Assembly (NCBI GenBank): GCA_011620275.1
Contig: WOZK01000010.1
Coordinates: 5,257 to 69,256 of the forward strand
Origin: Candidatus Omnitrophota bacterium
Lineage (GTDB): Bacteria; Omnitrophota; Gorgyraeia; Gygaellales; Profunditerraquicolaceae
Direction: 5' to 3'
DNA length: 64,000 nucleotides
The notes beneath the pieces were generated by a model. That model did not search any database and was not told the origin of the DNA. It was given only the letters and a program-made list of their open reading frames with translations. Both the position numbers and the translations under genes were made by a program. Of the stretch, positions 3,236 through 63,640 are shown piece by piece (position 1 is the first letter of the stretch; every line of letters begins with the position of its first letter).

Positions 3236-3447
3236 AGTATACAAAGGAAAAAGAAGAAGATGGATAGCAGGCATAAACCATATTTCCCGCGGCCGGCCCA
3301 GCCCGGGAGTTTCATTAGTGTTGACTTCGCCGCGCGAAGATGTAAAATATCCCCTGGATTATCCGGAGACAGGCGGCTATCGGAAGGAAGAATTTGGATT
3401 GTTCGTACGGTATCCGGCGCCGGTAATTCTTGCGGACGGAGCGCGTT

Positions 3448-8151: not shown

Positions 8152-8184
8152 ATAACACCTTGCCCTTGTGTGAACCCAATTCCG

Positions 8185-8275
8185 GGGACACGATACTTAA
8201 TTCGATAACGGCTACGGTAAGCAACAGACCCCAACCAATCTTTCTTCCCCTCGATGGGGAGGATGGAGGGGGGAA
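8185..8275. repeat. Dispersed mosaic intergenic repeat. Module X is CCGGGGACACGATACTTAAT and module Y is CCTCCATCCTCCCCATCGAGGGGAAG.
   Basis: The reverse complement matches 52650..52776 and 63520..63636. The X module also occurs at 22519, 39783, 49932(-), 52755(-) and 63615(-). Confidence 0.75.
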
Positions 8276-8606
8276 TGAGTGCGCTGTTTTATAAGTTTTT
8301 TACAGCGCACAGAGCAATCGAAAATCGAGAATCGAAAGGTAGAGAAAAGAAACATTTCGATTACGGTCAAATTTCGGTTTTCGATTTTTAAATACCGACA
8401 GTACTTTGTTAAAAAACGGCTCAATTTAATGGTTTTATCTTCGAGAAGATGCGTTGAACTAACATGAAATCAAAGATAATCAACGCATTGAAATACGCAC
8501 AACGCTTCCAATGACAATGTGTTACAATAAGATGGTTTTTGGAAAGTAAACACAAAGAAATAAATTTTAACAAAGTACTGATACCGATAAGCGATAGACG
8601 AATTAT

Positions 8607-22404: not shown

Positions 22405-22439
22405 AAGGATTACCCCGGGTTTGATCCTTCGACGGGCTT

Positions 22440-22560
22440 CAGTATTGAGCCTATCGAATTACTCTGGACATGCGCCCGGGGAGCTTCATTTTACAGTCGC
22501 CCGGTTGTTTAGTCAAGTTCGGGGCACGATACTTAATTAAACCGCTTATTGCCGGAAGCG
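22440..22560. repeat. Mosaic dispersed repeat: a Z-module fragment (GCGCCCGGGGAGCTTCATTTTA) plus the X module (CGGGGCACGATACTTAATT)
   Basis: Matches segments at 39905-39985, 26040-26110 and the X copies. Sits in the divergent intergenic region between the flippase and GH1 genes. Confidence 0.65.
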
Positions 22561-25989: not shown

Positions 25990-26039
25990 CAAATGCCCGC
26001 TGGGAACTATAATAAAGAGTTAATCGAGAAAGAAACTCC

Positions 26040-26110
26040 GGGCGCATGTCCTGAGTAGTTTGGCAGGCTCACTACTGAAGCCCGTCGAAGGGTCAGCCCG
26101 GGGAGTTTCA
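26040..26110. repeat. Z-module dispersed repeat (GGCGCATGTCCTGAGTAGTT...CAGGCTCACT...TCGAAGG...GCCCGGGGAGTTTCA)
   Basis: About 75% identical to 39905-39985, including the outer CCGGGC/GCCCGG stem. Partial copies at 3290-3330, 22460-22500 and 56925-56950. Confidence 0.6.
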
Positions 26111-26299
26111 ATAATCGGCGGCCCGCGTTGGAAGGAATAAATCCGGGACCTTAAAAAACGGGACCAGAGCCTTTGGGTGGCGAAGTCCCGTCATCGGCGC
26201 CGTAAGGCGCCATAAAACCTTCGCTTTTAGAAGCGGAGGTTTTTGTTTTTTAAAAAGGAAGGGCGTTTTCCCGTCCGCCGCAAGAAAGGGGGCAGCCGC

Positions 26300-27436
26300 A
26301 TGGTTCTCATCAGGAAGATCCCTGATACCGGGGAGAAATTGAGCATACTTTCACGCGATTCGCAGTATGATCTTGCCTGCGCCTGCGCCACCCGGGAGGA
26401 CGAGCACCGCCGGCGTTCCAAAGATGGCAAATGGATATATCCGGTGACGCTGCCCGGCGGGGGGACGACCTTTCTTTTCAAGACGCTTCTTTCCAATCAA
26501 TGCGTTAACGACTGCAAATACTGTCCGCTGCGCGCCGGTTCTCCGGCCGCGCGTTGTTCCCTGGCGCCGGAAGAGGCGGCCAGTGTGTTTTTTTCGTATT
26601 ATAAAGCGGGGAAGGTCAGCGGTCTCTTTTTGAGCAGCGCGGTCTGCGGCAGCCCGGACGCCAGCATGGAGAATATCAATCGGGTTGCTCTTTTATTGCG
26701 CAGGGAGCGTTTCAGGGGATACATACATCTGAAGATAATCCCCGGGGCTTCGGAGAACGCTATTAGGCAGAGTCTTTCTTTGGCCAGCGCGGTTTCTCTG
26801 AATATAGAGACGGCCGGGGAAGGGAATTTCAAGTATTTCGGCAAAGGCAAGGATTATGTTAAGGATATAATCAGACCGCTGGAATTCATCAGTCGTTTTA
26901 GGCGCAGCTGCTCCGGCGGGTGCAGGATTAAACAGACCACGCAATTCGTGGTGGGCGTCTCCCGGGAGACGGACGGAGAGATTATCGGTTGTTCTTCCCG
27001 GCTATACCACAGCCTGGGGATGTCGAGGGTCTATTTCAGCGCTTACCAGAGGGGAGAAGGTGATCCTTCTTTGCCTGGGGAGAACTCCTCATACAGCAGC
27101 GCGGAAATGCTGACGCGCGAGCACCGGCTTTACCAGGCTGACTGGCTGATGCGTAAATACGGGTTTCGCGCCGACGAGATACCGCTGGACCCCGGGGGTA
27201 ATCTTTCTCTGGATGCCGATCCTAAAGCAGTGTGGGCGAGCAGACATCCGGAATTCTTCCCGGTGGAGGTGAACAGCGCCTCTGCGTCGCGGTTGCTGCG
27301 TGTGCCCGGACTGGGGCTGACGGCGGTGGAAAGGATAATGCAGTTGAGGCGGGAAGGCGTAAGGCTGCGGTCTCTTGCGACCGCGGTTAAACGCGGAAAA
27401 ATACTGGAGCAAGCGGAGAAATATGTTGTTTTTTAA
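26300..27436 (+). CDS. Radical SAM protein with a C-terminal helix-hairpin-helix region (putative DNA modification/repair radical SAM family)
   Basis: CVNDCKYCPL is a Cx3Cx2C radical-SAM cluster motif. C-terminal ...ASASRLLRVPGLGLTAVERIMQLRREG is HhH. GGGGG SD sits before ATG 26300. The tracked ORF from 26243 is probably over-extended. Confidence 0.55.
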   Translation: MVLIRKIPDTGEKLSILSRDSQYDLACACATREDEHRRRSKDGKWIYPVTLPGGGTTFLFKTLLSNQCVNDCKYCPLRAGSPAARCSLAPEEAASVFFSYYKAGKVSGLFLSSAVCGSPDASMENINRVALLLRRERFRGYIHLKIIPGASENAIRQSLSLASAVSLNIETAGEGNFKYFGKGKDYVKDIIRPLEFISRFRRSCSGGCRIKQTTQFVVGVSRETDGEIIGCSSRLYHSLGMSRVYFSAYQRGEGDPSLPGENSSYSSAEMLTREHRLYQADWLMRKYGFRADEIPLDPGGNLSLDADPKAVWASRHPEFFPVEVNSASASRLLRVPGLGLTAVERIMQLRREGVRLRSLATAVKRGKILEQAEKYVVF

Positions 27437-27470
27437 TCAAACCGCAGAAATCCCCGGGTTCAAAGAGGGT

Positions 27471-37242: not shown

Positions 37243-37303
37243 AGGCTAATCAAACCGTAGAATCCCCAGGACGGGCAGGTTTTCGCGGCGGCAAGGAGAA
37301 GCG

Positions 37304-39764: not shown

Positions 39765-39781
39765 CCCCCGTTTTTTTCCTT

Positions 39782-39908
39782 CCGGACACGATACTTAATC
39801 AAGCCGGGTTACCTGTCGGAATAGCACTCTGTCTTCAAGGAGAGGCAGGTGTTCACTCGTGTGAAAATGCGGCGCAGACTTGCCCTTAGTTTATCTAAGG
39901 GGTACCCC
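39782..39908 (+). repeat. 127-bp dispersed repeat, left copy of an inverted pair
   Basis: About 96% identical to the reverse complement of 49827..49953. Contains the X module and internal hairpins (GTTCAC-TCGT-GTGAAC). Confidence 0.85.
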
Positions 39909-40048
39909 GGGCGCTTGTCCTGAGCAGTTCAACAGGCTCACTGTCAATGCATTGTCGAAGGATCCGCCCGGGGAGCTTCATTTATCAGCAACAGAAACGC
40001 TAACCAACAGGTTCAATAATTCCCGCCTTCAAACCCTGGAAACGTAAT

Positions 40049-43600: not shown

Positions 43601-46600
43601 CCAGATGCTGGGGTTCACCGGTATGACGATCTTCAGCTTCAAAGATCCGGGGCAGTACAGGCGTTTCCTTGGACTGATGGCGGAGATAAATACGTTAATC
43701 AAGCCGCAGAAATCCCCGGTTTTCACAGATCGGGAAGCTTCATTATCTCCCGTGCCCGGGCGTTATTCATTCGTGCCTGAAATCATGGTGCCTTTGGTCA
43801 TGACCGGTAACGGCGAGAATCCGTATACCTATCTGGATACTCGTTTCAGTAACGGGGAATTTTCCGGCGGTGATCACGGCCGGGAATACAAGGTAAGAAA
43901 AGAACTGATAAACAGAATTTTCGCGCAAAGGAACACTTTGCGCCCGGAGGTCAAGGTTTGCGCCGGCACCAATTCATTGTTCTTCAGACCGTGGAATGAC
44001 TCCGGACAAGAAACGGCGGGTATCCCTGACAAGAAAGATGGTGATAGTGCCGATGAAGACAAGTTTCAGGATATCCTGCTTTACTTTGCCGATCTGCTGT
44101 CCGGCAAGAGGGGTCAGCATCTTGATAAAAAGGCGCGCAATGAAATATTGAATATCGTGCACCGCTGCGTAATCCGCAATCCTTTTACTACGGAATGCGC
44201 GGCGGACAATCCGGAGAGAACGGCCGCCGATATATACATCCTGGCGGAACTGTTGAAAAAAAGTATAAGCATACTGGGCGAACAAGCCGGGAGCGCCGGG
44301 ACGCGGGAAGCGGAGGAACTCTTGTCGGACAGGGACCATCTATTGGCGGTATTCGAGTATTTTTCCCGATATGAATACGCGCTTAACTTTGTGGCCAACA
44401 TCTCGAAAATAGAGCCGTATAAATTCAAGAGGGCGGATCCCTTATCCAGCCGGTTGAGCTGGTTGGTGAGGCGTCTTTTTTCTTTCGAAACAGGTCTGCG
44501 AAAGTCGCGGGAGAGACTGTATAAGCAACTGGATGAGGTGATGGAATACGGCAATCTCGTGAACGGACTGTATTATGGCAGGGAAGAGGATATCAGACGA
44601 GAGTGGAAAGAGTGGGTGAACCGGTATTCATTATTGAAACGCGAAGACAGAGCGGCAGGACGGTTGAGCGGGCAGGTCCCCCCGCTCTCCGACAAGTGTA
44701 TGACAAGATTCATGCATAGGCAGAAGGTTCAATTGGGTGTCAACCGTATCTGGGACAGCGATAGAGGAATGATGTCGAGATTGCTGAGCTTGATCTCCCT
44801 GACCTTATTTGCCGTATTGACTATCGCGCCGTTTATCGGCGCCGGCAGTTTGTCATTATTCTGGGGGGCGATGCAGTCTCCCGGCAGTTTTATCGCCGCC
44901 TCTTATGCAAACGGGGATATTACGGCTTTCGTTCTCACCTCGATCAGATTTTGTCTCGGCGTCATTCCCCTGATCTTTTCCTGGTATAACCTCAGTTTCG
45001 TAAGCGTAAGCGATCCTTGGTACGAGTCCAATATGAAGCTTATAGCGGATTTTAGGCACGCCGGGGCGGGGAAATACGCTTCGGAAAGCGGCTTATCTAA
45101 AGAATTCAACGCCCTTGTCCGGGCGTATGAGGCCGAGATATCGGCTCCTCTTCCGTCGGCAGACTTCTTGATAGTAGTCGGCAGCGGCTCGCCGGATAGT
45201 AAAAAATATTTCACGGGAAACGGAATGCCGATCCGGGATAAAGGTGTGTTTCTGAAATATCTCACCGGAAGCCGCGGCAGCGGGAATGCCTGGTTGTCCG
45301 CGGTCAGATACCTGGAATCGGATTTTATGAAGGAGAGCGGCCGGTCTCCACAGGGGCTTAAAGGAATAATAATCCTCGCTGATGACATCGAGACCCCCGT
45401 TCGCCTCCCGTTCTCTCTTCCGCAGAGAACCCTGAAGCGATCCGGGCGCCCTTTGAGCAATATAGATCTTGCTATTCTTAACGGTTACAAATTGACGCAG
45501 CAGATGGCGTCGGAAGGCAGGGGCGGCCTTGTGGTTACCTATGCGGATAGCCTGTTGATAAGTCCGATGCAGATAGACGGTGATATCACGGTGTCCGGCG
45601 TATGGACGGATTATGAACAGTTGCGCGAACAAAACCCCGGATTGCTTATTGCCGATGTGGGCAAAGGAAATCGTCTCAGGAAGATGTATGAAAAAGCCGA
45701 TTTGCATAGAGTACGCGGCAAGATAGAAAAAGCGGCCGGTCCGGGCGCGATAAACTGGGCTGAAATGAAACGCAGGCAGCTGCTTGTTTTCGCAGGAACG
45801 GTCGTCATCAGTTTTAAGGACGATGTGCGTTATGCCGGTTTCCTCAAGATGATGGCTGAAGCGGCCGTCTTCTCCACGCCCCGGGGCAATAAAGAGGATA
45901 AATTGTCGTTCGTTTCCGATATCTTCATTCCTTTATTGATGTTGATGAACAATGAGAATCCTTACACGTACCTGGATGCGGTATCGCTCGGGCAGAACAG
46001 GGAATTTGTCATGAACGAAGAGGGATGCGTCTTGAGAAGAAGAATAATACGGTTGTTTGAAAAGCAGCGGGATATTCTGCCGGGTATGGCGAGGGTATGT
46101 GTTCATCCTCAGGGGACATATCTGAGGCTGGACCATAGCCCTTTTGCCGGCAAGAGACTCGCTTATTTAAATGCCCGCATGCGGCAAGAGACGTCCGGCG
46201 TGTCGGTTTCGCATTCGTCTCTGGAGAATCGAGCGCCGGATACCGCGCGGGAAAAGGGAGTTCGGACTGAGTGGAAGAATGACTGCAGGGATAAACCGGC
46301 ATTCAGGCCGGCCGGGAACGCCGCCGGCCGGGCATTCGCGGTTTCCTCCGCGTTTCCGTTATCCGTTGATTTCTTATGGAATACGGACAGGCTGCAGACC
46401 GTCTTAAGGGATAGGTTGGACAAGGAGCTCCTGAGAGAATGGCGTTATCGGCGTGCTTGGGATGTATTGTCTGTGAAGTCCAAGGTATGCCGTAGGGATG
46501 TTTTGTCCGCAGGGGAAGTGTTGGGAGAAGAATTTGAGGTTTTTCCGCAGGCAGAAAACCGCCGGCGGGAAGATGTTTTCGGACGGGCAATAGGTTATGC

Positions 46601-47276
46601 CGTCATGGACGGATGGCGGGCCCCCCTGGACGGATGGCGGGCCCCCGATGCATTTTACAGCTCGGTCCAGCCGCCGCAAGAAGGGTTTCCCGGTCCTCTG
46701 CCGCTTGACAGCGGCGGTCCCTGGTCCTCAAGATATAAGTTCCAATATGGAGGGACTTATTCTGGGGCCGGAATGTTCACGAGACCCGGCGGCGGAGAAA
46801 GAGCTGTCCTTTCAGATAAGCCGGGGCAGGAGGCGTATTTGTTCGTTCCCGCGCCGCTTCTTAAGCCGGCGAACAGACTTAAGGAGAATGAAGAATGCGT
46901 TTATAACCTTTGGGCAAAACCTAAGAATGGAGGAGAAGGATTCATGCTTTTGGGAGGGCTTGGCGGACTTTCAGCTCTCTCGGAAGGGCTGATAGAAAAA
47001 GCCCTGCAGGCGCTCGCGAATGCCGGTAAGGATGCTTCCGGATTCAATTTCTTTCTTGTCAGCAGTTGTGATCTCTCCAACCGAATAGACGTGACCCCTC
47101 AGTTATACGCGTCCGCCGGAGACGGTTGTTTTTCGCGAGGCGATTACAAAGGCGCTTTAAAATATTACGATCTCTGCCTCGATCTCTACGGCAAAGCCGG
47201 CCTGTCCCCGTCTCTTTATGAAAGGATCGCGGCGGGAAAACAAAAGGCCGGTGAGATGCTGAAAACGGGGGCCTGA
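40617..47276 (+). CDS. Giant (2219-aa) exported/membrane protein of unknown function with two tandem ~700-aa paralogous modules, each with a TM hairpin, and a TPR-like C-terminus
   Basis: Uninterrupted 6.66-kb ORF. Signal/anchor at residues ~20-50. Module A (nt ~42040-44130) and module B (~44130-46200) share about 45-50% identity (EYFAEYEYALNFVVNIPKIEPYRFKR vs EYFSRYEYALNFVANISKIEPYKFKR, LNGYKSTQEMG vs LNGYKLTQQMA, NENPYTYLD in both). TM pairs at ~42655-42830 and ~44760-45010. DGWRAPL tandem repeat at 46606-46647. No confident catalytic family. Confidence 0.75.
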   Translation: MEQCADIPGSGNIRLMSNSFREYGFFRRAVTFFTFLSCIFAFCLPFSFSAPSIPLNPAVSERPVFVFRSLTVENGNKFLRLPVFSASSGPTSRESCLEEEAGRLTQYFLTGLNAPSGDLWVNLSPRDPGRIVGPALKGTEAGKVMLDADIQLKKDFAALISPYTNRGSNFWVRVRMKSGELFGAGGMQIPLEIRLWIEPSEVVIKESNESAFIERAVLKVSFEPVFGPGADSRLILFGNYACGLLSPSVSEELTAAVNSAPRYCRLRQVFNSLVLAQWLKQRSASREAYNELAARGVLCGLVSGARWSAQDYFRQYKKLAQKHSVDFSSISFLSTGEISVISGFSGGVSFALPAFPPPGTVALPFHAGAVTVKPASGNETDKLCRSVVEASIKTGASGGVPELGITVHPLPDRTPADTDKLFVYVHPAASDGGESGAGTDSQSVDNNVERSGISRQEYFDRLLRSWAGILDSNERKEFHASIRNDILNISSQCVTIMPFIPERATGKAESLASDIRLIVDLLRETVRRIDYNVVPADEEERKSVAAEREELLAAIEYFAEYEYALNFVVNIPKIEPYRFKRGGRFWRACETAVRRVFLFEYGLRRSRQLLLEQTDKVISLGNRLNRAYTGKEKYVREEWKKWIAEQDILNGGVKRAAGVKNKSSVPLGINRTWKTTGTTTRFVSLISVCLFLFVSMLDFGHILAGISLFLLKLGLVGMSFFISWYSIAWVGFNDVWYKQRISELESLRNNEAVCDFRRERIKSEITQTLNSFKREKRAPSVDYILVFCKPGMKKNVRLNPELLRDDVLLEITEADSGSGGVYAQACSDLLSGRYDSSFERTARLKGKSVSDMRGIVIVLERFFSVSETDGYLDKAASGAVLPAGWGPLNNLEMALLNGYKSTQEMGALGRSGMVFVFADNFLISPATIKGDITLIGSWDSYRHIKDWGLGLLVADIGSGDKLVKLYEKADTPRLHKKLRRSFLYTALDWENEDKTQMLGFTGMTIFSFKDPGQYRRFLGLMAEINTLIKPQKSPVFTDREASLSPVPGRYSFVPEIMVPLVMTGNGENPYTYLDTRFSNGEFSGGDHGREYKVRKELINRIFAQRNTLRPEVKVCAGTNSLFFRPWNDSGQETAGIPDKKDGDSADEDKFQDILLYFADLLSGKRGQHLDKKARNEILNIVHRCVIRNPFTTECAADNPERTAADIYILAELLKKSISILGEQAGSAGTREAEELLSDRDHLLAVFEYFSRYEYALNFVANISKIEPYKFKRADPLSSRLSWLVRRLFSFETGLRKSRERLYKQLDEVMEYGNLVNGLYYGREEDIRREWKEWVNRYSLLKREDRAAGRLSGQVPPLSDKCMTRFMHRQKVQLGVNRIWDSDRGMMSRLLSLISLTLFAVLTIAPFIGAGSLSLFWGAMQSPGSFIAASYANGDITAFVLTSIRFCLGVIPLIFSWYNLSFVSVSDPWYESNMKLIADFRHAGAGKYASESGLSKEFNALVRAYEAEISAPLPSADFLIVVGSGSPDSKKYFTGNGMPIRDKGVFLKYLTGSRGSGNAWLSAVRYLESDFMKESGRSPQGLKGIIILADDIETPVRLPFSLPQRTLKRSGRPLSNIDLAILNGYKLTQQMASEGRGGLVVTYADSLLISPMQIDGDITVSGVWTDYEQLREQNPGLLIADVGKGNRLRKMYEKADLHRVRGKIEKAAGPGAINWAEMKRRQLLVFAGTVVISFKDDVRYAGFLKMMAEAAVFSTPRGNKEDKLSFVSDIFIPLLMLMNNENPYTYLDAVSLGQNREFVMNEEGCVLRRRIIRLFEKQRDILPGMARVCVHPQGTYLRLDHSPFAGKRLAYLNARMRQETSGVSVSHSSLENRAPDTAREKGVRTEWKNDCRDKPAFRPAGNAAGRAFAVSSAFPLSVDFLWNTDRLQTVLRDRLDKELLREWRYRRAWDVLSVKSKVCRRDVLSAGEVLGEEFEVFPQAENRRREDVFGRAIGYAVMDGWRAPLDGWRAPDAFYSSVQPPQEGFPGPLPLDSGGPWSSRYKFQYGGTYSGAGMFTRPGGGERAVLSDKPGQEAYLFVPAPLLKPANRLKENEECVYNLWAKPKNGGEGFMLLGGLGGLSALSEGLIEKALQALANAGKDASGFNFFLVSSCDLSNRIDVTPQLYASAGDGCFSRGDYKGALKYYDLCLDLYGKAGLSPSLYERIAAGKQKAGEMLKTGA

Positions 47277-49657: not shown

Positions 49658-49826
49658 CCGGGCCACGGAAGGCGTATAAGTGTAAACCATGTACCCGGTC
49701 TATAGTGTAAAGTATGTTACCAGTTTGTACCATTATCGCCTCTTCCGTCATCCTCCCCATCAAGGTGAGGAAAGAAGCGAATACTTGGCCTTCCGATAGG
49801 CCAAGGTAAATCCCCGGCACTCTACA

Positions 49827-49953
49827 GGGTACCCCTTAGATAAACTAAGGGCAAGTCTGAGCCGCATTTTCACACGAGTGAACACCTGCCTCTCCTTGAA
49901 GGCAGAGTGCTATTCCGAGAGGTAACCCGGCTTGATTAAGTATCGTGTCCCCG
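49827..49953 (-). repeat. 127-bp dispersed repeat, right (inverted) copy
   Basis: Reverse complement of 39782..39908 with about five mismatches. Ends 17 bp before the pstC start. Confidence 0.85.
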
Positions 49954-49969
49954 GAAGAAAAAATCTACT

Positions 49970-50860
49970 ATGAAAAGATTATTCTCCAAAGAAAGCGTTT
50001 ACGCCTCTGTCTTCGGCATACTGGCCTTTGCCTGTTTGATCTTTCTGGCGGGAATAACCCTGGTACTTTTTAAAGAAGGACTGCCGTTGTTCGCCAAGGT
50101 AAGCCTGTGGGATTTCCTTTCCGGTACCGCGTGGTATCCCACGCACGAAGACCCCGAGTTCGGGATACTGTCGCTGTTGGCCGGCTCGTTATGGGTTACC
50201 GCGGGAGCGATGCTGGTTTGTCTTCCTTTGGGCATAGGCAGCGCCCTTTATATAAACGAGATCGCCGGCAATACCCAGAAGGCGGTGTTGAAACCGCTGG
50301 TGGAATTGCTGGCGGGTATCCCTTCCATAGTGTTCGGTTTTTTCGGGATGGTGGTGGTCGCGCCGTTCCTGCAGAGGCTGCTGCATATTCCTACAGGGCT
50401 TTGCGCCTTTACCGCCAGCCTCATCCTGGGTATCATGGCGGTCCCCACTGTCTGCAGTCTTTCCGAGGATGCCTTGAGCTATGTTCCTGCCAGTTACCGG
50501 GAGGCGTCCCTTGCGCTCGGCGCCACCCGCTGGGAGACTTTAATCAAGGTCGTTCTACCGGCTGCCGGTTCAGGTATATCCACGGCCGCCATACTCGGTG
50601 TCAGCAGGGTGATGGGCGAAACGATGACGGTCCTGATGGTCTCCGGAGGGGCGGCTATAATCCCGCATTCTTTTTTTCAGCCGGTAAGGCCGTTGACGTC
50701 CACTATCGCCGCGGAGATGGGGGAGGCCGCCGTGGGCAGCACGCATTACCAAGCGCTCTTCGCCATAGCCATGGTGCTTTTCACGCTTACTTTCATTTTT
50801 AATATCGCCGCCGAGATCTTAAGCCGCAGATACCGGTTAAAGCTGGGAATACAAAGATGA
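49970..50860 (+). CDS. pstC: Phosphate ABC transporter permease PstC
   Basis: Six TM helices and the EAA-like loop ...LGATRWETLIKVVLPAAGSGI... Confidence 0.9.
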   Translation: MKRLFSKESVYASVFGILAFACLIFLAGITLVLFKEGLPLFAKVSLWDFLSGTAWYPTHEDPEFGILSLLAGSLWVTAGAMLVCLPLGIGSALYINEIAGNTQKAVLKPLVELLAGIPSIVFGFFGMVVVAPFLQRLLHIPTGLCAFTASLILGIMAVPTVCSLSEDALSYVPASYREASLALGATRWETLIKVVLPAAGSGISTAAILGVSRVMGETMTVLMVSGGAAIIPHSFFQPVRPLTSTIAAEMGEAAVGSTHYQALFAIAMVLFTLTFIFNIAAEILSRRYRLKLGIQR

Positions 50861-51804
50861 GAAGAAAGATTTGCGTTACAGGAGTCTTCCGGAAGCTTTT
50901 TGAGCGGACGTTCGCGCGGAGCGCCGGGAACGTTTCGGTATCGGCCGGATCCTATAGGAACAAGCAGGCCGCGCAGAAAGCCGGGTTTTTCCTGTTGTTC
51001 TGCTGTATCCTCGCGACGCTGCTGTTCCTCGGCAGTATCGTTTATTTCATTTTTGCGGGGGGAAGTAAAGTCGTCACTTGGGGTTTCCTCACCCAGTGGC
51101 CGCGCAACGCTATGACCGAAGGCGGGATATTCCCGGCTCTGTTGGGGACTTTTTATCTTACCCTTGGGGCGGTAACGGTCGCTTTACCGCTGGGGCTGGC
51201 GTGTGCCGTGTATCTATGCGAATATACGCCCGGCAGCCTGGCGCTTAACGCCATTCGCATCGGCATAAACAATCTTGCCGGAGTGCCGTCGGTCGTCTTC
51301 GGGCTTTTCGGCCTGGCGGTGTTTGTGAAATTCTTTGGTTTCGGGGTTTCGGTGCTTTCCGGGAGCCTGACTTTGGGAATACTTATTCTGCCGGGAATAA
51401 TATCGGCTTCACAGGAGGCGCTTATGGCCGTGCCTAATTCCCTCAGGGAGGCTTCTTTCGCTTTGGGAGCTACCCGCTGGCAGACAATCAAGAAAATAGT
51501 CGTCCCACAGGCGTTGCCGGGTATATTGACCGGCGTGATCTTGAGCATCGGCAGGGCGGCGGGCGAGACCGCTCCCATACTTTTTACCGCCGCGGCTTTT
51601 TATACGCGGAGGTATCCGCAGTCTCCGTTTTCTGAAGTCATGGCGCTGCCTTATCATATTTACGCCCTGATGACTGAAGGGACGCATCCGCGCCAGCAAA
51701 CGGTTATAGCCTACGGCAGCGCGCTGGTTTTGCTTATACTGGTGCTGCTGATTTCCGGGACCGCGGTTTTCATACGCCAGAGACATAGGAGTTACAATGG
51801 ATAA
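50857..51804 (+). CDS. pstA: Phosphate ABC transporter permease PstA
   Basis: ...[48 protein letters not shown]... Confidence 0.9.
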
Positions 51805-52558
51805 AGAAATAAGGATGCGCGCGGAAGGAGTAAACTTTTTTTACGGCAGCCGTCCGGCGTTGAAGGACGTCAACCTGGAGATATACCGTAACCAGGTCAC
51901 CGCGATAATAGGCCCGTCGGGATGTGGTAAGTCCACTTTTATCCGTCTGCTTAACCGGATGAACGATATGGTCCCCAAGAGCCGGCTTGAGGGCAGAATA
52001 TTTCTGGACGGAGATGATATTCACGACCCCGAGACGGACGTGGTGGATATCAGACGCAGGGTGGGGATGGTTTTCCAGAAGCCGAACCCCTTTCCGAAAA
52101 GCATTTTTGAGAATATCAAATACGGCCTGGAGATAAACGGGATGCGCGACAAGTCGGTTATAGAAGACAAGGTGGTGGATTCTCTGAAGAAAGCCGCTTT
52201 GTGGGAGGAGGTCAAGGGCAGACTCTACGACAGCGCGCTCAGGCTTTCCGGCGGTCAGCAGCAGCGGCTTTGCATAGCCAGGTGCCTGGCGGTTGAGCCG
52301 GAAGTCATACTTTTCGACGAGCCTTGCGCCAGCCTGGACCCGATTTCCACTGCCCGGATCGAAGAACTGTTGATGGAGCTCAAACAGGAATATACGATAG
52401 TGATCGTAACTCACAATATGCAACAGGCGGCAAGGGTCTCCGGTAACACCGCTTTCTTCCTACTGGGGGAGATTGTGGAGTTCGGCAAGACCCAGGATAT
52501 TTTCACAAAACCGCGGGACTCCAGGACAGAAGCGTATATCACGGGAAGATTCGGATAA
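51797..52558 (+). CDS. pstB: Phosphate ABC transporter ATP-binding protein PstB
   Basis: [32 protein letters not shown], and the PstB-specific C-terminus ...EAYITGRFG. Confidence 0.93.
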
Positions 52559-52639
52559 TCGGTTATCTTTTGCCCGGTCGCGATACTTTATTTCAGTTTC
52601 ACCGATGCTTTAATCGGATACGGCTATTACGACCCCTGC

Positions 52640-52790
52640 TTCATCTTTCTTGACTGTCATCCCTCCTTCATCCTCCCCATCGAGGGGAGGAAAGATTGGA
52701 GGTATCCATTGGGGAGGAAAGATAGCTTGAATTCTGTTGGTTACCGTAACCGAATTAAGTATCGTGTCCCCGGAAGAAAGGATGCGTGGA
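52640..52790. repeat. Mosaic repeat (Y module, with the inverted repeat CTCCCCATCGAGGGGAG, plus the X module) immediately upstream of phoU
   Basis: Near-identical copies at 63520..63636 and, in reverse complement, 8185..8275. Confidence 0.8.
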
Positions 52791-52791
52791 T

Positions 52792-53466
52792 ATGTTAAGA
52801 CATTTTGATTTGGAACTGGATGAGCTCAAGAGACAACTGTTGGGAATGGGAAGGCTGGTGGAGATGGCGATTTCCGCTTCGCTGGAGGCGCTGGAAACAC
52901 TGAATGCCGTCGCCGCCAGCAATGTCGTCGCCGCTGACCGCGCCATAGACGAACTGGAGAACGCACTTGATGAACGTTGTTTCGATCTGCTGGCGCTCAA
53001 ACAGCCCATGGCGGTTGACTTGCGTTTCATCGCCATGTCGATGAAAATATCCACCGATCTGGAAAGGATGGCTGATCTTGCCGTGGACATCGCCCAGAGA
53101 GTAATCGAGCTTGCCGGTAAACCGCTTCTGAAACCGCTGGTGGACATTCCCAAGCTTGCCGCGCTGTCCAAGCGCATGACCTCCGAGGCCCTTCTGGCGT
53201 TCGTGGAGAAAGACGCCGATGCCGCCGCGGGTATAATCATTATGGACAGGGAGGCGGACAGGTTGCGTAATCTAATCCAGAAGGAATTAATGGAAGATTT
53301 TATGGCCAAAGACACTTCGGTCGCCCCGCGCGCCATACCTTTGCTTTTGATCGCCCGCCACCTGGAGCGCATCTGCGACCACGCTACTAACATAGCCGAA
53401 GACGTGATTTATATGGTGCGTGCAGACATCGTCAAGCACCATCCGGAACGTCTGAATCCGGAATAA
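52792..53466 (+). CDS. phoU: Phosphate signalling complex protein PhoU
   Basis: MLRHFDLELDELKRQLLGMG... and two PhoU repeats (...ERMADLAVDIA... / ...ERICDHATNIAEDVIYMV...). Confidence 0.9.
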   Translation: MLRHFDLELDELKRQLLGMGRLVEMAISASLEALETLNAVAASNVVAADRAIDELENALDERCFDLLALKQPMAVDLRFIAMSMKISTDLERMADLAVDIAQRVIELAGKPLLKPLVDIPKLAALSKRMTSEALLAFVEKDADAAAGIIIMDREADRLRNLIQKELMEDFMAKDTSVAPRAIPLLLIARHLERICDHATNIAEDVIYMVRADIVKHHPERLNPE

Positions 53467-53657
53467 GCCACATCCTTGCCGCCGGCCGTTTTGCGGTGAA
53501 CCGGGGTGAGCTTTCCTCCCGGCGTGCCGCATGCCCTTCAATATTCCGCATACATTCGGTTCCGTCAGTGCAACAAAGAAGCCCGGGGTAATCCTTAGAC
53601 AAATTAATGACAAGTCCGGCTTGAAAGCCTGGAATTTCTGCGGTTTGATTAAAAGAG

Positions 53658-56054: not shown

Positions 56055-56908
56055 TCATTTCGGTCGCCAGCGGTAAAGGCGGCACCGGCAAGACCACGAT
56101 TGCGGTCAACCTGGCGCTTTCTCTCGGGGATGTGCAGTTTCTCGACTGCGACGTGGAAGAACCGAACGCCCATATATTTCTGAAACCGCGTCTTACCGAC
56201 GAACGCAGGATCTTCGTCCCGGTTCCCGAAATAGACGAATCTAAATGCACTTATTGCGGCAAGTGTCGCGAGGTCTGCGCGTTTAACGCCATAGCGGTCC
56301 TGGGCGGAACCGGCCCGGGCGGAGGGAGCGTTCTTGTATTCCCTCATCTTTGCCACGGCTGCGGCGCCTGCAGTATTTTCTGTCCGGAAAAAGCGATAAA
56401 AGAAATCGGCAGGGAGATCGGGATGGTCGAGAGCGGAATTAGAGACGGGATGGGATTTGTCCATGGGCGGTTGAACGTGGGAGAAGCTATGTCTCCGCCT
56501 TTGATCAGGAAGGTCAAAGAGCGCGCGGATTCGGCAAGAACGGTAATCATTGACGCCCCCCCGGGGATATCCTGTCCGGTAATCACGGCGGTGGAAGGTA
56601 GCGATTTCTGCCTGCTGGTTACTGAACCCACGCCTTTCGGGCTCAACGATCTTGTCCTGGCGGCCGGGATGCTGCGCGAATTGAAAATACCTTTCGCGGT
56701 CGCCGTCAACCGCGACGGCATCGGCGACGGGAAAGTGGACGATTATTGCGCCGGGGAGAAAATCCCGATCTTGATGCGTATACCTTTCAGTAAAGAGATA
56801 GCCGGAGCGTATTCCCGCGGAGAACCGGCAGTTTCGCTGTTTCCGGAGCTTGCCGGGCAGTTTCGGGATCTTTTCTCGCGTATCAGGACCGTATCAGGCA
56901 GCAGTTGA
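56051..56908 (+). CDS. MinD/Mrp-superfamily P-loop ATPase with an inserted 2x[4Fe-4S] ferredoxin domain
   Basis: SGKGGTGKTT deviant Walker A. CTYCGKCREVCAFNAI and CHGCGACSIFCPEKAI. Confidence 0.8.
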   Translation: MIISVASGKGGTGKTTIAVNLALSLGDVQFLDCDVEEPNAHIFLKPRLTDERRIFVPVPEIDESKCTYCGKCREVCAFNAIAVLGGTGPGGGSVLVFPHLCHGCGACSIFCPEKAIKEIGREIGMVESGIRDGMGFVHGRLNVGEAMSPPLIRKVKERADSARTVIIDAPPGISCPVITAVEGSDFCLLVTEPTPFGLNDLVLAAGMLRELKIPFAVAVNRDGIGDGKVDDYCAGEKIPILMRIPFSKEIAGAYSRGEPAVSLFPELAGQFRDLFSRIRTVSGSS

Positions 56909-56949
56909 TCAAGACGCAGAAATCCCGGGTTTTCAGGGGAGCTTCATTT

Positions 56950-58385: not shown

Positions 58386-59237
58386 ATGAAAAGTCTGATA
58401 TTGTCTCTATTTTTTCTCGCCTGTTTCTCTGTCCAGTCATCGGCCGCCGTGAATAATTCGGTGCGGATAAAAGGGTCTGATACTATGGTCAACCTGGCGC
58501 AGTCCTGGGCCGAAAAATACATGGAGATAAAACCGGAAGTCTTTCTGGCCGTGACCGGCGGAGGCTCGGGCACCGGGTTCTCCAGCCTGATCAGCGGCAC
58601 CTGCGAGATCGCCATGAGTTCAAGGGAAATAAAGGAAAAAGAGATCGCTCTGGCGGAGAAAAGAGGCATACATCCTTACGAGATAAAGGTCGCCCTGGAC
58701 GGGCTGGCGGTGGTCGTCAATCCGCAGAACCCGGTAGAAAAGCTGACCATGGAACAGTTGGCCGGGATATTCACCGGCGCTATCCGCAACTGGAAAGAAT
58801 TGGGGGGGCATGACGAAAAGATCGTGGTGTTGTCCCGCGAGGTGAATTCCGGGACCCACGTTTATTTTAAAGAGCACGTTCTCAGGAGGGGCAACCCGCA
58901 GGGGACGGAGGAGTTCGCCCCTTCGGCGCTGTTATTGTCTTCTTCGCAGGCGATAGCGGACGAGATCGCCCAGAACCCGGGAGCCATCGGTTATTATGGC
59001 ATGGGATACGTCTGCGCCAAACAAAAGGCGGTCCTAGTGGCCAAGGACGCGAAGTCGCTTTATGAAGCCCCGACGATCGACAACGTGATAAGCGGCCGAT
59101 ATCCGATATCCAGGCCGCTCTTCTTTTATCTCAACGGCAGCCCGCAGGGGATGTTGAAGGATTTTATAGATTATTGTCTTTCCGGAGACGGGCAGGAGAT
59201 AGTGGTGAAAACCGATTTCGTCCCTTTAAAACGTTAG
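58386..59237 (+). CDS. pstS: Phosphate ABC transporter substrate-binding protein PstS (second copy)
   Basis: Signal peptide, then IKGSDTMVNLAQSWAEKYM...GGGSGTGFSSLISGTCEIAMSSREIK. Confidence 0.9.
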   Translation: MKSLILSLFFLACFSVQSSAAVNNSVRIKGSDTMVNLAQSWAEKYMEIKPEVFLAVTGGGSGTGFSSLISGTCEIAMSSREIKEKEIALAEKRGIHPYEIKVALDGLAVVVNPQNPVEKLTMEQLAGIFTGAIRNWKELGGHDEKIVVLSREVNSGTHVYFKEHVLRRGNPQGTEEFAPSALLLSSSQAIADEIAQNPGAIGYYGMGYVCAKQKAVLVAKDAKSLYEAPTIDNVISGRYPISRPLFFYLNGSPQGMLKDFIDYCLSGDGQEIVVKTDFVPLKR

Positions 59238-59243
59238 AAGTCT

Positions 59244-60110
59244 GTGCGTAAACTAAAAGAATTCGTCATAGAGAAACTGATACTCTTCTGCGGGTTGGCG
59301 TCCATCTTTTTCGTGGTGCTTATTTTTCTTTTCCTGCTTAAAGAAGGCCTGGCGGTTTTTAAAACGGTAACTCCTCCCCAATTTCTTTTCGGAAAAAGCT
59401 GGTATCCGATTTCCGAACCGCCTCATCTCGGCATCCTGCCGTTGATCTTGGGGTCTTTAATGGTCACGCTCGGCGCGGCACTGATCTCCATACCCATCGG
59501 CGTGGCCTGCGCTGTTTACATCGCGGAGGTCGCCCCCCTGAAAATAAAGGAAATACTTAAAAGCGGCATAGAACTACTGGCCGCCATCCCGAGCGTGGTC
59601 CTTGGGTTCATCGGTATGGTCACCATAGTTCCCTGGATAAAAAGCATTTTTCATCTTCCCACCGGCCTCACCGCGCTTTCCGGGGCGGTGATGCTGGCTT
59701 TTATGGCCATGCCTACCATAGTCTCCATCGCGGAGGATGCCCTTTATTCCGTGCCCAAGACATATAAGGAAGGGGCCCTCGCGCTGGGCGCCACTCACTG
59801 GCAGGCTATCCACAGGGTGATCCTGCCCGCCGCTTCCTCCGGCATAATGGCGGCGGTGATGTTGGGAATAGGCAGGGTCATAGGAGAGACCATGGCGGTG
59901 ATGATGATCACCGGAAACGCCGCGGTGATCCCGCATTCCATACTTCAGCCGGTGCGGACGCTCACCGCTACCATAGCCGCCGAGATGGGGGAGGCGGTGG
60001 TAGGCAGCGAACATTATTTCGCCCTTTTCGCCGTCGGCATCGTGCTGTTCGTGATAAGTTTCATCGTAAACGTGGGCGCCGACCTTTTTCTGCATAAGAA
60101 AGAACAATGA
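59244..60110 (+). CDS. pstC: PstC permease (second copy)
   Basis: ...LGATHWQAIHRVILPAASSGIMAAVMLGIGRVIGETMAV... Confidence 0.9.
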   Translation: MRKLKEFVIEKLILFCGLASIFFVVLIFLFLLKEGLAVFKTVTPPQFLFGKSWYPISEPPHLGILPLILGSLMVTLGAALISIPIGVACAVYIAEVAPLKIKEILKSGIELLAAIPSVVLGFIGMVTIVPWIKSIFHLPTGLTALSGAVMLAFMAMPTIVSIAEDALYSVPKTYKEGALALGATHWQAIHRVILPAASSGIMAAVMLGIGRVIGETMAVMMITGNAAVIPHSILQPVRTLTATIAAEMGEAVVGSEHYFALFAVGIVLFVISFIVNVGADLFLHKKEQ

Positions 60111-61015: not shown

Positions 61016-61755
61016 AGTTCCTCATAAAAGACCTGAACATCTGGTTCGGCCAGATACACGCCATGAAGAACGTGAACATGGAGATTGGCTCGAAACAGAT
61101 ATTGAGCGTGATCGGCCCGGCCAACAGCGGCAAGACGACCTTCCTGCGTATGCTTAACCGGCTTAACGAATTGAACGACAATTTCCGTATGACGGGGGAG
61201 GTGCTTTTCGGCGGCAGGGACATCGTCGAGATGGACCCGGAAACGGTGAGAAAAAAGATAGGAATGGTTTTCGCGCTCCCGCTTCCCTTGCCTATGTCGA
61301 TATTCGACAACGTTGCCTACGGGGTAAAAGTCTCCGGGGTTAGGAACAGGAAACTTCAGGCGGCTGCGGTAGAAAAGGCGTTGAAGCAGGCGTATCTTTG
61401 GGACGAGGTCAAAGACAGGCTGGACACCTCGGCTTTTAAACTCTCCGGCGGCCAGCAGCAGCGGCTTTGCATAGCCAGGACCTTGGCGGTGGAGCCGCGC
61501 GTCATTCTTTTTGACGAACCGTGTTCGGGGCTGGACCCGATCTCGACGGCCAAGGTGGAAGAGGCGATGCTCGTGCTCAAGAAGGATTATACGATAATCC
61601 TGGTTACCAATAACGTCAAGCAGGCCGCGCGCGTGGGGGACAGGACGGCCTTTTTCCTTTCCAGCGAGCTTGTCGAGATGGACGGCACGGATAAGATATT
61701 CACGGCGCCGCGGGACAAGCGCACCGATGATTACATAAGGGGGAAATTTGGATAA
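61009..61755 (+). CDS. pstB: PstB ATPase (copy 2a), with a divergent Q-loop/Walker B neighbourhood
   Basis: ATG 61009 overlaps the pstA stop. [33 protein letters not shown], ...DDYIRGKFG. The tracked ORF from 60691 is an antisense-style over-extension. Confidence 0.85.
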
Positions 61756-62506: not shown

Positions 62507-62736
62507 ATCCGGGGAGGGGCCGGTCTTGGCGGCGGTCGGCTACCGGAATATGTCTTGTGTGCTATACTATATAATATATGGCGGCCGCGCGGTGTTTTAA
62601 TCAGATTGCTGCTTCGGCAGGCGCACTGTCAAGACTTGCCGAAGAATGAGCAGTGGAGCGCCGGAATGACGCGGCTAAGCAGGATGGGCATTGAAGAATA
62701 CTAATTCCCGGATACGACAAGTTTGAAAGAGAGGTC

Positions 62737-63439: not shown

Positions 63440-63640
63440 TTTTAGTCACCCCTCTTTAATTCTCCCCATCGGATGACAGGGAAGATGATCACCCTTCCTA
63501 AGTCTCCTTAGTTATCACCCCTCCATCATTCTCCCCATCGAGGGGAGGAAAGATTGGAGGTCCCCATTCGAGAGGAAAGATAGGTTGAACTCTGTTGGTT
63601 ACCGTAACCGTTACCGAACTAAGTATCGTGTCCCCGAATA
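63440..63640. repeat. Mosaic repeat (two Y-like units plus the X module) downstream of phoU2
   Basis: ...CCTCCATCATTCTCCCCATCGAGGGGAGGAAAGATTGGAGG...GTTGGTTACCGTAACCG...AAGTATCGTGTCCCC, same order and orientation as 52650..52776. Confidence 0.8.

Follow-up and report, generated by a model that had tools for sequence, protein, structure and literature searches.

What are the short sequence modules that recur in changing combinations along 64 kb of the genome of an uncultured Omnitrophota bacterium (the whole stretch analysed here, hereafter the window)? Our results indicate that they are selfish REP/BIME-like mosaic DNA elements, a fresh example of a known element type that reveals neither a new class of regulatory RNA nor a new regulator or type of system. 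In particular, the window probably holds small non-autonomous DNA repeats from this uncultured lineage, combined into a BIME-like mosaic. The most conserved module, X, is the terminal inverted repeat (TIR) of a Y1/HUH transposase family that occurs in many bacterial phyla, and a transposase acting in trans would spread or maintain the copies.

A preliminary description of the window had proposed a MITE-like modular family built from modules X, Y, Z and Q at 10 or more sites. Such a family is real. All four modules lie at or near the positions given for them, where dinucleotide shuffles yield 0-0.12 chance matches, and we counted 13 repeat-bearing sites. One minus-strand Q copy placed at 53611 lies at 53625, and a fifth large module, W (108 nt), had been overlooked. 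The copies in the window are as follows (L numbers denote loci in other genomes).

3283..3316, + strand: 3' fragment of Z with the Z-end motif GCCCGGGAGTTTCATT last (end piece 3301-3316); the 'empty' state of a polymorphic site.
8178..8203, + strand: solo X, a TIRYT-type TIR, AATTCCGGGGACACGATACTTAATT (match 8184-8201), kept at the same spot in L191.
8204..8279, - strand: linker and Y hairpin CCTCCATCCTCCCCATCGAGGGGAAGAAAGATTGG (Y 8239-8263), on the TTAAT side of X.
8282..8340, + strand: module H, hairpin GTGCGCTGT..ACAGCGCAC and then AGAGCAATCGAAAATCGAGAATCGAAAGG.
22405..22490, + strand: Z with its ~53-nt core inverted between CCCGGG arms; the right arm GCCCGGGGAGCTTCATT stays in + orientation.
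22518..22544, + strand: X variant TTCGGGGCACGATACTTAATTAAACCG with 2 mismatches (match 22520-22537).
26033..26112, + strand: full Z, outer stem GAAACTCCGGGC / GCCCGGGGAGTTTC around a ~50-nt core.
27433..27460, + strand: Q alone (match 27434-27460); the TAA of Q is the stop codon of ORF 26243-27436.
37247..37270, + strand: weak Q-like copy TAATCAAACCGTAGAATCCCCAGG in a 62-nt spacer.
39780..39799, + strand: X variant TTCCGGACACGATACTTAAT with 2 mismatches (match 39782-39799), opening the longest composite.
39800..39907, + strand: W, a 108-nt multi-hairpin module starting CAAGCCGGGTTACC directly after the TTAAT of X.
39905..39982, + strand: full Z after W, ending in GCCCGGGGAGCTTCATT.
43695..43754, + strand: Q (43696-43722) and degenerate Z end, in frame within the 2219-aa ORF 40617-47276.
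49744..49826, + strand: degenerate Y hairpin (49751-49775) and S hairpin TTGGCCTTCCGATAGGCCAA, in the pstS-pstC spacer.
49827..49934, - strand: inverted copy of W.
49935..49956, - strand: X (match 49935-49952), outer end 13 nt before the pstC ATG (49970).
52655..52702, + strand: Y hairpin (Y 52671-52695) in the pstB-phoU spacer.
52703..52753, + strand: degenerate X-like arm GGGGAGGAAAGATAGCTTGAATT and 20-nt loop, predicted to pair with the adjacent minus-strand X as a REPIN-like dimer.
52754..52775, - strand: X (match 52754-52771), 10-16 nt before the phoU start (GTG 52786 / ATG 52792).
53579..53654, - strand: Q (53625-53651) and W-end-like piece ..AAGGATTACCCCGGGCTT in the phoU-fur spacer, ~87% conserved in L111.
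56904..56948, + strand: minimal unit of Q (56904-56935) and Z end (56933-56948) in an intercistronic gap, conserved in L111.
63446..63560, + strand: partial Y (63446-63471) and full Y (63513-63560, match 63529-63553) after phoU2.
63561..63637, - strand: degenerate X-like arm, loop and X (63618-63635, 1 mismatch), 2 nt before ATG 63640.

As first described, the repeats often end close upstream of start codons, pstC (13 nt) and phoU (10-16 nt) among them. They had also been said to lie always at gene boundaries, which does not hold: the Q and Z end at 43695-43754 are in frame inside ORF 40617-47276, and a 19-nt exact match to X lies in the interior of recN (13218-13236). The recN 19-mer was rejected as an insertion, since recN homologues align across it gap-free and differ in length at the C-terminus.

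The consensus of module X, AATTCCGGGGACACGATACTTAATT, which reads GGGGACAC GATACTTAATT, occurs in 64 or more loci that represent about ten phylum-level groups, and among 114 matches to GGACACGATACTTAAT in the genome collection, 85 have GG directly 5' against ~7 expected. According to the record titles, these groups include Desulfobacterota, Omnitrophota, Planctomycetota, several proteobacterial classes, Acidobacteria, Elusimicrobia, Aminicenantes and SAR324; X is not lineage-specific, and it was not found in the viral contigs searched. Only one non-trivial protein family is common to X loci: a protein of 220 aa, which 11 of them carry in intact or degraded form. This ~220-aa protein matched PF01797 (Y1_Tnp) with 53.5 bits, and a 222-aa member contains TNHVHLIV, LWQGRF and YVELNPV (motifs NHVH, WQ and YVELNP). 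The X-flanked protein scored 67.7 against NCBIfam REP_Tyr_transpos, below the cutoff of 80, as would be expected of a non-canonical RAYT. In five loci from other genomes (L020 with 2+2 copies, L059, L063, L075 and L110), inward-facing X copies flank the transposase gene on both sides, the left one stopping 16 nt short of the start codon and the right one overlapping the stop codon. Conversely, when loci were picked by the protein, 3/3 homologues (69-77% identity to the query) had X on both sides at fixed positions; X flanks both sides in L193/L194 and L197/L198, and in L195/L196 the left X is diverged and the right X, spotted by eye, is degenerate and inverted. These data identify X as the terminal inverted repeat of a Y1/HUH transposase of the TIRYT type (Group-1 RAYT, TnpA-Y1 subclass 2.1).

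In the window, the GGGGACAC head, which fits the GGGGWSAS consensus of such TIRs, is kept in four X copies that carry 0-1 mismatch to the cross-phylum consensus, and it is mutated to CGGGGCAC / CCGGACAC in the two copies at 22520 and 39782. Two other readings of X were dismissed: a sigma-54 promoter (GGCACG-N4-TT) by the missing -12 GC, and both this and a Pho box or operator by the position of X around a transposase gene in many phyla.

Y1 transposases with GGGGWSAS TIRs were described as TIRtrons/TIRYT by Di Nocera et al. 2013 (PMC3733652), and their counterparts are TnpA-Y1 subclass 2.1 of Quentin et al. 2018 (PMC6006769) and the Group-1 RAYTs of Bertels et al. 2017 (PMC5581495). The protein criteria of subclass 2.1 are a PF01797 core, NHVH, W[EQ], Y[IV]ELNP, a C-terminal extension and a median of 238 aa (PMC6006769). 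The X system shares with TIRYT a Y1/HUH gene between inward inverted repeats starting GGGGWSAS (X starts GGGGACAC; other genomes), the motifs NHVH, WQ and YVELNP in a ~220-aa protein, dispersed solo copies, dimers and clusters, and a wide, patchy distribution over phyla. It differs in several respects. X in the window is only dispersed, with no transposase gene found by tblastn in the 64 kb and none in the orthologous loci; among the loci compared, L110 is the only Omnitrophota example of the transposase, its gene is degraded, and we assume that the host genome encodes a cognate enzyme. X is also fused to lineage-specific modules, and at ~1 copy per 10 kb it is denser than the modest repeat numbers reported for Group 1 (Bertels et al., PMC5581495). 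Subclass 2.1 genes are reported to lack, in general, associated families of REP-like repeats (Quentin et al., PMC6006769); high-copy dispersal of X is therefore not typical of this family. Moreover, X (19-26 nt) is essentially invariant while the proteins share only 45-56% identity, which we did not find stated in the literature on the group. The preliminary description had allowed that the repeats might belong to an already catalogued family. This holds for X by family type, whereas no paper with its exact sequence was found in the searchable literature.

In contrast to X, modules Y, Z, Q and W are confined to the Omnitrophota MAGs JBAZDY01 and JAAYZR01 and close relatives, and none was found in 78 loci (~0.5 Mb) around PhoU homologues at most 71% identical. 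Together with S and H, they are lineage-specific stem-loop pieces, which combine with X into two composites. One consists of X, a loop, a degenerate inverted X and the Y hairpin, arranged as a REPIN-like dimer; module H adjoins Y in L009, L046, L089, L102, L111 and L191 as well. By eye, the degenerate arm agrees with X at 17/20 positions, allowing two 1-nt insertions, a likeness that is no more than suggestive. The other composite runs X|Q, optionally W, Z core and Z end, where Q and Z end pair as hairpin arms (GAAAYCCCCGGGC ... GCCCGGGGAGYTTC) around a loop that can be exchanged. Contiguity was seen for X|Q (L009), X|Z (L085) and Q|Z (L191, L046), and L102 and L025 have the minimal hairpin of Q and Z end. 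W makes up 108 nt of a 124-nt inverted pair (39784-39907 and 49827-49950) that is 98% complementary, and its copies in L039, L062 and L089 are 94-95% identical. Truncation, nesting or inversion of these two composites, and not free shuffling, accounts for the copies in the window. The varied module orders and orientations first described do make a mosaic, but the modules are not independent units: in related copies, X directly adjoins Q or W, and Q directly adjoins Z.

The copies turn over fast. Between genomes 92-95% identical, whole modules are inserted, deleted or swapped, and the presence/absence polymorphism that had been proposed as a check was seen at orthologous spacers. At the site orthologous to 3283..3316, L191 has an extra ~117 nt (Q, arm, Z core and Z end) after ..GTTTCATT, a discrete indel between genomes 95% identical. 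The linker and Y piece of 8204..8279 is swapped in L191 for a different 40-nt module, and the 291-nt pstS-pstC spacer is replaced entirely in L111 by an unrelated 77-nt spacer. The X of the pstB-phoU spacer is retained at the same position in L111 and L112, with different neighbouring modules.

The repeats had been called unlike simple REP elements, a contrast that falls away in the light of published BIME-like mosaics and TIR repeats of RAYT-like transposases, which share this architecture (PMC2817692, PMC3733652, PMC6006769) and to which X belongs as such a TIR. Like enterobacterial BIMEs (REP units and spacer motifs), the window combines a transposase-recognised repeat with other short motifs in a mosaic, with alternating unit orientations, positions that are mainly extragenic and fall between operon genes, and unit numbers that vary per site. 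Unlike them, it has no GTAG-tagged REP hairpin, the repeat unit being the TIR of another RAYT-like subclass, and the accompanying modules, which reach 108 nt, exceed those of BIMEs in length and do not resemble them in sequence; one copy is intragenic. The resemblance would be one of organisation and not of membership. A canonical REP is a 20-40-nt palindromic hairpin with a 5' GT[AG]G tag, and X, which lacks the GTAG tag and does not by itself form a palindrome, is therefore not classed as one. As in REPINs, which are inverted REP doublets mobilised by single-copy RAYTs, a hairpin is predicted at 52711-52772 and 63567-63635 between X and a degenerate inverted copy, with a loop of ~20 nt, and clean X-loop-X' doublets occur only in other phyla (L012, L058, L081 and L109). 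However, one arm of the window pairs is strongly degenerate, most X copies are solo, and the enzyme class (Group 1) is reported as not REPIN-associated. As a parallel for REPs in a pst operon, the record checked for E. coli MG1655 has no REP features annotated there.

Alternatively, the modules might be transcribed structured RNAs conserved for their fold, such as cis-regulatory leaders or sRNAs, with Z as a leader and Y as an mRNA-stabilising hairpin. Z, the composite containing W and the Y-X composite form somewhat more stable folds than shuffles (z -1.3 to -3.3): the full Z at 26033..26112 reaches -33.1 kcal/mol (z -1.3), the Z at 39905..39982 z -3.3, and the Y-X composite in the region of 52703..52753 -45.9 kcal/mol (z -2.6), including a predicted hairpin at 52711-52772. 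The Z core is also sense to the downstream gene in 5/5 copies examined, including the inverted one at 22411-22490 that faces a minus-strand gene, and a unit of Q and Z end exactly fills an intercistronic gap with GGGGAG beside the start codon. The orientation of the Z core is accounted for equally by strand-specific transposition, and Rfam 15 gave no match to any module at gathering thresholds or at E<=5, with no tRNA or tmRNA found. None of 22 predicted Z pairs shows a compensatory change and some are broken, in alignments of 5-11 near-identical copies that leave room for an RNA-level role; in 11 near-identical copies of Y there was likewise no compensatory change, and the few changes present break stem pairs. 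Moreover, copies come and go between genomes 92-95% identical, and one is translated in frame. We therefore consider the structured RNAs suggested earlier quite improbable. A hammerhead-like reading of Z (CUGAGUAG) was rejected, as the core did not fit on inspection and Rfam was negative.

It is somewhat less improbable, though still unlikely, that the repeats are dead relics which no longer transpose, and that the mosaic arose only by homologous recombination, gene conversion and slippage among old copies, no transposase being involved in this lineage. This would fit the lack of a transposase gene in the window and orthologous loci, the two mutated GGGG heads, the module swaps at orthologous sites, which resemble replacement more than clean insertion, and the inverted Z core and the indel between direct copies of Z end, which are classic products of recombination. 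Against it, the two W copies share 98% identity although they lie 10 kb from each other, and copies in another MAG are 94-95% identical, pointing to recent spread or homogenisation; four X copies have stayed within one mismatch of a consensus that spans phyla, and the ~117-nt Q-Z unit comes or goes as a whole. Mobilisation as classical MITEs by a DDE transposase, through terminal inverted repeats with target-site duplications, would fit the short, intergenic elements and the inverted repeats of the Q and Z-end arms, but we regard it as most improbable. No target-site duplication is visible at the single filled/empty Q-Z pair, where flanking direct repeats make the boundaries ambiguous; the ends of the Q-Z units are constant, with CAAACCG.. 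and ..TTCATT next to a TTAAT-like flank, and X is linked to a Y1/HUH enzyme and not to a DDE enzyme.

Under the favoured reading as non-autonomous repeats, a Y1 transposase encoded elsewhere in the genome would spread or maintain the copies in trans by acting on single-stranded DNA. Q-Z units would be inserted 3' of a TTAAT-like pentanucleotide, which would explain why they abut TAA stops and the TTAAT end of X. The Z core may have been flipped by recombination between inverted CCCGGG arms, and modules may have been deleted by recombination between direct copies. Any effects on neighbouring genes, through mRNA hairpins or Shine-Dalgarno-like GGGGAG by start codons, would be secondary. The left flank of 10/13 Q copies is T(T/A)AAT, and units with Q and Z end lie 8:1 on the + strand, as expected for strand-specific transposition of single-stranded DNA; most genes lie on this strand, and its GC skew is positive along the whole window. 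These features, together with fixed ends, subterminal hairpin arms and no visible target duplication, recall the IS200/IS605-derived PATEs, whose insertion site lies on the 3' side of a fixed sequence of four or five nucleotides. No IS200/IS605 TnpA/TnpB is linked to the window units, however, and their target rule comes from few copies, so that the likeness serves as a working analogy and not as membership. A bolder reading, which we hold only tentatively and rather doubt, takes the Q-Z units as undescribed Y1/HUH-type single-strand miniature elements that insert 3' of TTAAT (after TAA stops, the TTAAT end of X or their own ..TCATT end) and so build nested mosaics stepwise. It further takes the invariance of X (19-26 nt) across at least 10 phyla, with a transposase diverged to ~50% identity and short 'stutter' duplications on the outer side of X that suggest a border at GG|GGACAC, as a sign of an unusually rigid recognition and cleavage code. 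If true, this would be an unusually rigid protein-DNA code for the largest, least-studied RAYT group.

X provides a concrete DNA partner, conserved across phyla, for this RAYT-like group (TIRYT / Group 1 / subclass 2.1), and its fixed sequence allows a straightforward biochemical test of TIRYT binding and cleavage. Earlier surveys recorded few or no repeat families for the group, whereas in Omnitrophota X has spread to the density found in the window and has become joined to local stem-loop modules. The repeats are likely break points in metagenome assembly, and in Omnitrophota MAGs they account for differing spacer lengths, for small spurious ORFs and for a giant protein with an in-frame insertion. 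At the minimal unit 56904..56948, Q contains the TGA stop of the upstream gene, and the ATG of the downstream one (56941) shares bases with the tail of the Z end, ..CATTTATG. A search for homologues of the giant ORF's segment surrounding the intragenic copy gave no matches; within this 2219-aa protein, the paralogous half is 12 aa shorter exactly at the Q and Z end.

All four repeat modules of the preliminary description, X, Y, Z and Q, were found in the window on or a few bases off the positions claimed, confirming its observation of a repeat family, which it had put at 10 or more sites; repeat-bearing sites number 13 in the 64 kb. A fifth module of 108 nt, W, had been missed, and the hairpin modules S and H were also added here. 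The 18-mer core of X gave 6 matches in the window against 0.04 expected.

Repeat modules and their copies in the window
X (CCGGGGACACGATACTTAAT), at most 3 mismatches: 8182 (+), 49935 (-), 52754 (-), 63618 (-); shuffle expectation 0.00
X, diverged copies found by the 18-mer core search: 22520 (+), 39782 (+)
Y: 8239 (-), 49751 (+), 52671 (+), 63529 (+); 4 matches, 0 expected
Y, partial copy: 63446
Z end piece, CCCGGGGAGCTTCATT: 4 matches in the window, 0.12 expected
Z, full copies: 26033-26112 and 39905-39982
Q: 27434, 43696, 53625 (-), 56904
Q, weak copy: 37247
W: 108 nt inside a 124-nt inverted pair, 39784-39907 and 49827-49950, 98% complementary
S: hairpin TTGGCCT..AGGCCAA
H: hairpin GTGCGCTGT..ACAGCGCAC plus AGAGCAATCGAAAATCGAGAATCGA

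We identify X with high confidence as the terminal inverted repeat (TIR) of a TIRYT/Group-1 RAYT transposase, a Y1/HUH tyrosine transposase bounded by such repeats. A scan of one genome per species with GGRCACGATACTTAAT returned at least 109 stretches, and because about 500 chance matches to the bare 16-mer are expected in that collection by our own estimate, matches were judged by their flanks. Among the matches listed, GG precedes 85 of 114 GGACAC-type matches (about 7 expected) and T follows 88 of the 114. The extended motif AATTCCGGGGACACGATACTTAATT occurs at 64 loci at least, assigned by record title to Desulfobacterota, Omnitrophota, Planctomycetota, Gamma-, Alpha-, Beta- and Zetaproteobacteria, Acidobacteria, Elusimicrobia, Aminicenantes, SAR324 and Bacteriovoracaceae. 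The 16-mer matches outside these loci were rejected as X, being chance or coding matches, one group of them a conserved Streptomyces region with GGGCAC; those in the conserved coding context ATGATGGACACGATACTTAAT, which we take to be pyruvate phosphate dikinase, are likewise not X.

Clustering of all ORFs in the X loci revealed a single non-trivial family in common, a protein of ~220 aa that is present, intact or degraded, at 11 or more of them. This protein matched PF01797 (Y1_Tnp, IS200-like) with 53.5 bits and the NCBIfam model of REP-associated tyrosine transposases with 67.7, under the cutoff of 80, and it carries the motifs NHVH, LWQGRF and YVELNP. Inward-pointing copies of X surround the transposase gene, two per side in one locus from another genome (L020) and one per side in four (L059, L063, L075, L110). 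In the reverse test, three homologues on long contigs were picked blind to the DNA from a protein search with at least 7,986 matches at E ≤ 1e-20, and X flanks all three. For two of these genes, 16 nt separate the end of X(+) from the start codon and the stop codon is overlapped by X(-); in the third, X(+) occupies the equivalent place but is diverged, and an inverted, degenerate X is visible by eye at the stop codon. Such a flanking arrangement has been published for TIRtrons/TIRYT, whose inverted repeats have GGGGWSAS in common (Di Nocera et al. 2013, PMC3733652), and X, starting with GGGGACAC, fits this consensus. TIRYT has been equated with TnpA-Y1 subclass 2.1, which is characterized by NHVH, W[EQ], YIELNP and a median of 238 aa (Quentin et al. 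2018, PMC6006769), and the same transposases were named Group 1 by Bertels et al. 2017 (PMC5581495).

That the window's copies are or were formerly mobilised by a TIRYT-type enzyme is held with moderate confidence; the 64-kb window contains no X-type transposase gene. No paper with the exact sequence of X turned up in the searchable literature, and viral contigs had no X. What may be new to specialists is that X hardly varies from phylum to phylum while its enzyme has diverged to 45-56% identity, and that X reaches a high density in the window. The preliminary description had called the repeats unlike simple REP elements, which is wrong, since X is the TIR of a TIRYT/Group-1 RAYT transposase; its interpretation as a MITE-like, modular and polymorphic family holds. 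The best description is a BIME-like mosaic, built around X as its transposase-linked anchor.

In loci L193-L198, the X-flanked transposase unit (gene at 1501-2169 in each) is very compact and of fixed geometry across genomes, with X(+) ending 16 nt from the start codon and the TAA stop inside X(-). Short tandem "stutter" copies of the 7-10 nt before GGGGACAC, together with the first bases of GGGGACAC itself (for example GAGTTCCGGCGAGTTCCGGGGACAC), often border X externally; they were observed at L011, L024, L035, L055, L059, L066, L074, L075, L081, L089, L090, L094, L193:2164-2260 and L194:1440-1484. Of 86 distinct X copies, 16 have a stutter, compared with 2 of 88 for a control offset; three of those 16 X copies are nothing but full tandem X repeats. 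Near transposase genes the stutter lies outside both inverted repeats. The stutter could be the footprint of the cleavage and joining site.

Y, Z, Q, W, S and H were found only in Omnitrophota relatives, and the window's RecN is closest to proteins labelled Candidatus Omnitrophota. The Omnitrophota MAG JBAZDY01 carries these lineage-specific modules at 85-95% identity, and JAAYZR01 (Ca. Undivivens industriae) has partial and weaker counterparts, 68-100% identical over short stretches; none of the modules was detected around PhoU homologues of ≤71% identity (78 loci, about 0.5 Mb in total). The four modules do exist, but they are not independent units reused in different orders; they are better read as pieces of two composites sharing X, from which they derive by truncation, nesting or inversion. 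Composite A, in the orientation of 52655-52775, runs from the Y hairpin through one to three ~23-nt units of the type GGGGAGGAAAGAT(A/T)G.TTGAA.T and a 20-nt loop to X(-); one unit is missing at 8184, and L102 has three. The last unit is predicted by folding to pair with X and looks by eye like a degenerate X, so that the two together resemble a REPIN-type dimer. Composite B consists of X abutting CAAGCCGCAGAAATCCCCGGG (Q), followed by the Z core and GCCCGGGGAGCTTCATT (Z end), and its junctions are contiguous between X and Q in L009, X and Z in L085, and Q and Z in L191 and L046. Q forms one arm of a hairpin and the Z end the other; the loop between them is 6-7 nt in the minimal form (L102:102-148, L025 and window 56904-56948) and is the ~50-nt core in Z. 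At 39800-39907, W is placed between CAAGCCG and CCCCGGG. At 22411-22490 the Z core is inverted with the right arm unchanged in orientation; exactly such a product would be expected from recombination between the inverted CCCGGG arms.

Nearly all repeat sites are intergenic according to Pfam annotation of the window.

Repeat-bearing spacers (Pfam)
DUF362/PMT_2
polysaccharide flippase/GH1
histidine kinase/unknown
unknown/GHL10
histidine kinase/giant ORF
PstS/PstC
PstB/PhoU
PhoU/Fur
ParA-like Fe-S protein/C_GCAxxG
PhoU2/unknown

X(-) ends 13 nt upstream of the pstC ATG, 10-16 nt upstream of the phoU start and 2 nt upstream of an ATG at 63640. The gene-boundary location claimed for every copy is not universal, as the Q-Z end unit at 43695-43754 is translated in frame within ORF 40617-47276. 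The halves of the encoded protein are paralogous (39% identity, E 4e-56), and the one bearing the unit has 12 extra aa at precisely this point, consistent with an in-frame insertion. The same has been described for REPs (Di Nocera et al., PMC3733652). This ORF (+) encodes 2219 aa with no Pfam match at 1e-5, and a 420-aa fragment had no homologue at E ≤ 1e-10 among 5.8 billion proteins. In addition, 19 nt within recN are identical to the head of X (CAATTCCGGGGACACGATA; 13218-13236, -) and encode DIVSPEL. An insertion was rejected there, as homologues align across it without a gap; only the closest relatives (≥87% identity) share the peptide, and gene conversion from an X copy and coincidence are both possible origins. 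The window also holds two paralogous pstSCAB-phoU clusters (49970-53466 and 58386-63405; 67-75% nucleotide identity over long stretches), with mosaic repeats in the spacers of the first and after phoU in the second, the 230-nt pstB2-phoU2 spacer being free of them.

Q starts with CAA(A/G)CCGCAG; the bases just before it are T(T/A)AAT in 10 of 13 copies and TGAT, CATT or CACT in the others. In the window this flank contributes the upstream gene's stop codon at 27434 (TAA) and 56906 (TGA). TTAAT is also the end of X, its junctions with Q and with W read TTAAT/CAAGCCG, and Q-Z units always end just after TTCATT. In the IS200/IS605 family, IS608 targets TTAC and ISDra2 TTGAT. By analogy, and with low to moderate confidence, Q-Z units may target a TTAAT-like pentanucleotide, inserting on its 3' side with no duplication; this would account both for where they sit at stop codons and for the way they nest on X and on one another. 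Units of Q and Z ends lie 8:1 on the + strand, where GC skew is positive throughout and most genes reside; this bias fits strand-specific single-strand transposition and could also reflect selection in mRNA.

A structured-RNA reading, also raised in the preliminary description, found no support. No Rfam family matched any module at the gathering score or at E ≤ 5, predicted folds were only moderately better than shuffles (z -1.3 to -3.3), no compensatory change occurred in the 22 pairs of Z, several of which were broken (5 copies), and the few substitutions among 11 nearly identical copies of Y break the stem. Given this small sample of copies, the result is an absence of support and not a disproof. 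Two similar terminator-like hairpins followed by T runs (TAAAACCTTCGCTTTTAGAAGCGGAGGTTTTTGTTTTT) were noted at 26213-26250, with the Z copy of 26033-26112 some 100 nt upstream, and at 40780-40817; a sub-threshold Rfam match to an Enterococcus sRNA over the former (26.3 bits, gathering score 100) is probably meaningless.

Presence/absence polymorphism, which the preliminary description had proposed to look for in related genomes, was seen at orthologous spacers of L111/L112 (~92% identical to window 47-59.5 kb) and L191 (~95% identical to 2.8-14.8 kb). The pstS-pstC spacer comprises 291 nt of Y-S-W-X in the window versus an unrelated 77 nt in L111. Between pstB and phoU, the window and L111 share an X(-) in the same place; next to it are Y plus linker in the window, inside a 169-nt non-aligning stretch, and a 38-nt piece like the S and W ends in L111. 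At 3301-3316, where the window has one Z end, L191 has ~117 nt more (Q, arm, Z core, Z end), starting directly after ..GTTTCATT. In the DUF362-PMT_2 spacer, X(+) is kept in the window and L191, the linker and Y of the window are swapped in L191 for another 40-nt module that recurs inverted elsewhere in L191, and the window has ~220 nt more. The phoU-fur and 56904 copies are stable (87-91% conserved). This pattern is that expected of mobile or recombining selfish repeats.

Downstream of recN, past which the window and L191 are not collinear, ~700 nt of L191 (11770-12500) lack a counterpart in the window; in this stretch the 40-nt module that L191 has in place of Y beside X occurs once more, inverted. 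Window 2940-3058 (~119 nt), in or next to a response-regulator gene, is missing at the orthologous place in L191; it has inverted ends (CAGTCTGCTGAAAAA / TTTTTAGCAGACTG) around GTCATTCTGAGGCCGCAGGCCGAAGAATCTCATC as core and resembles a separate family of miniature repeats.
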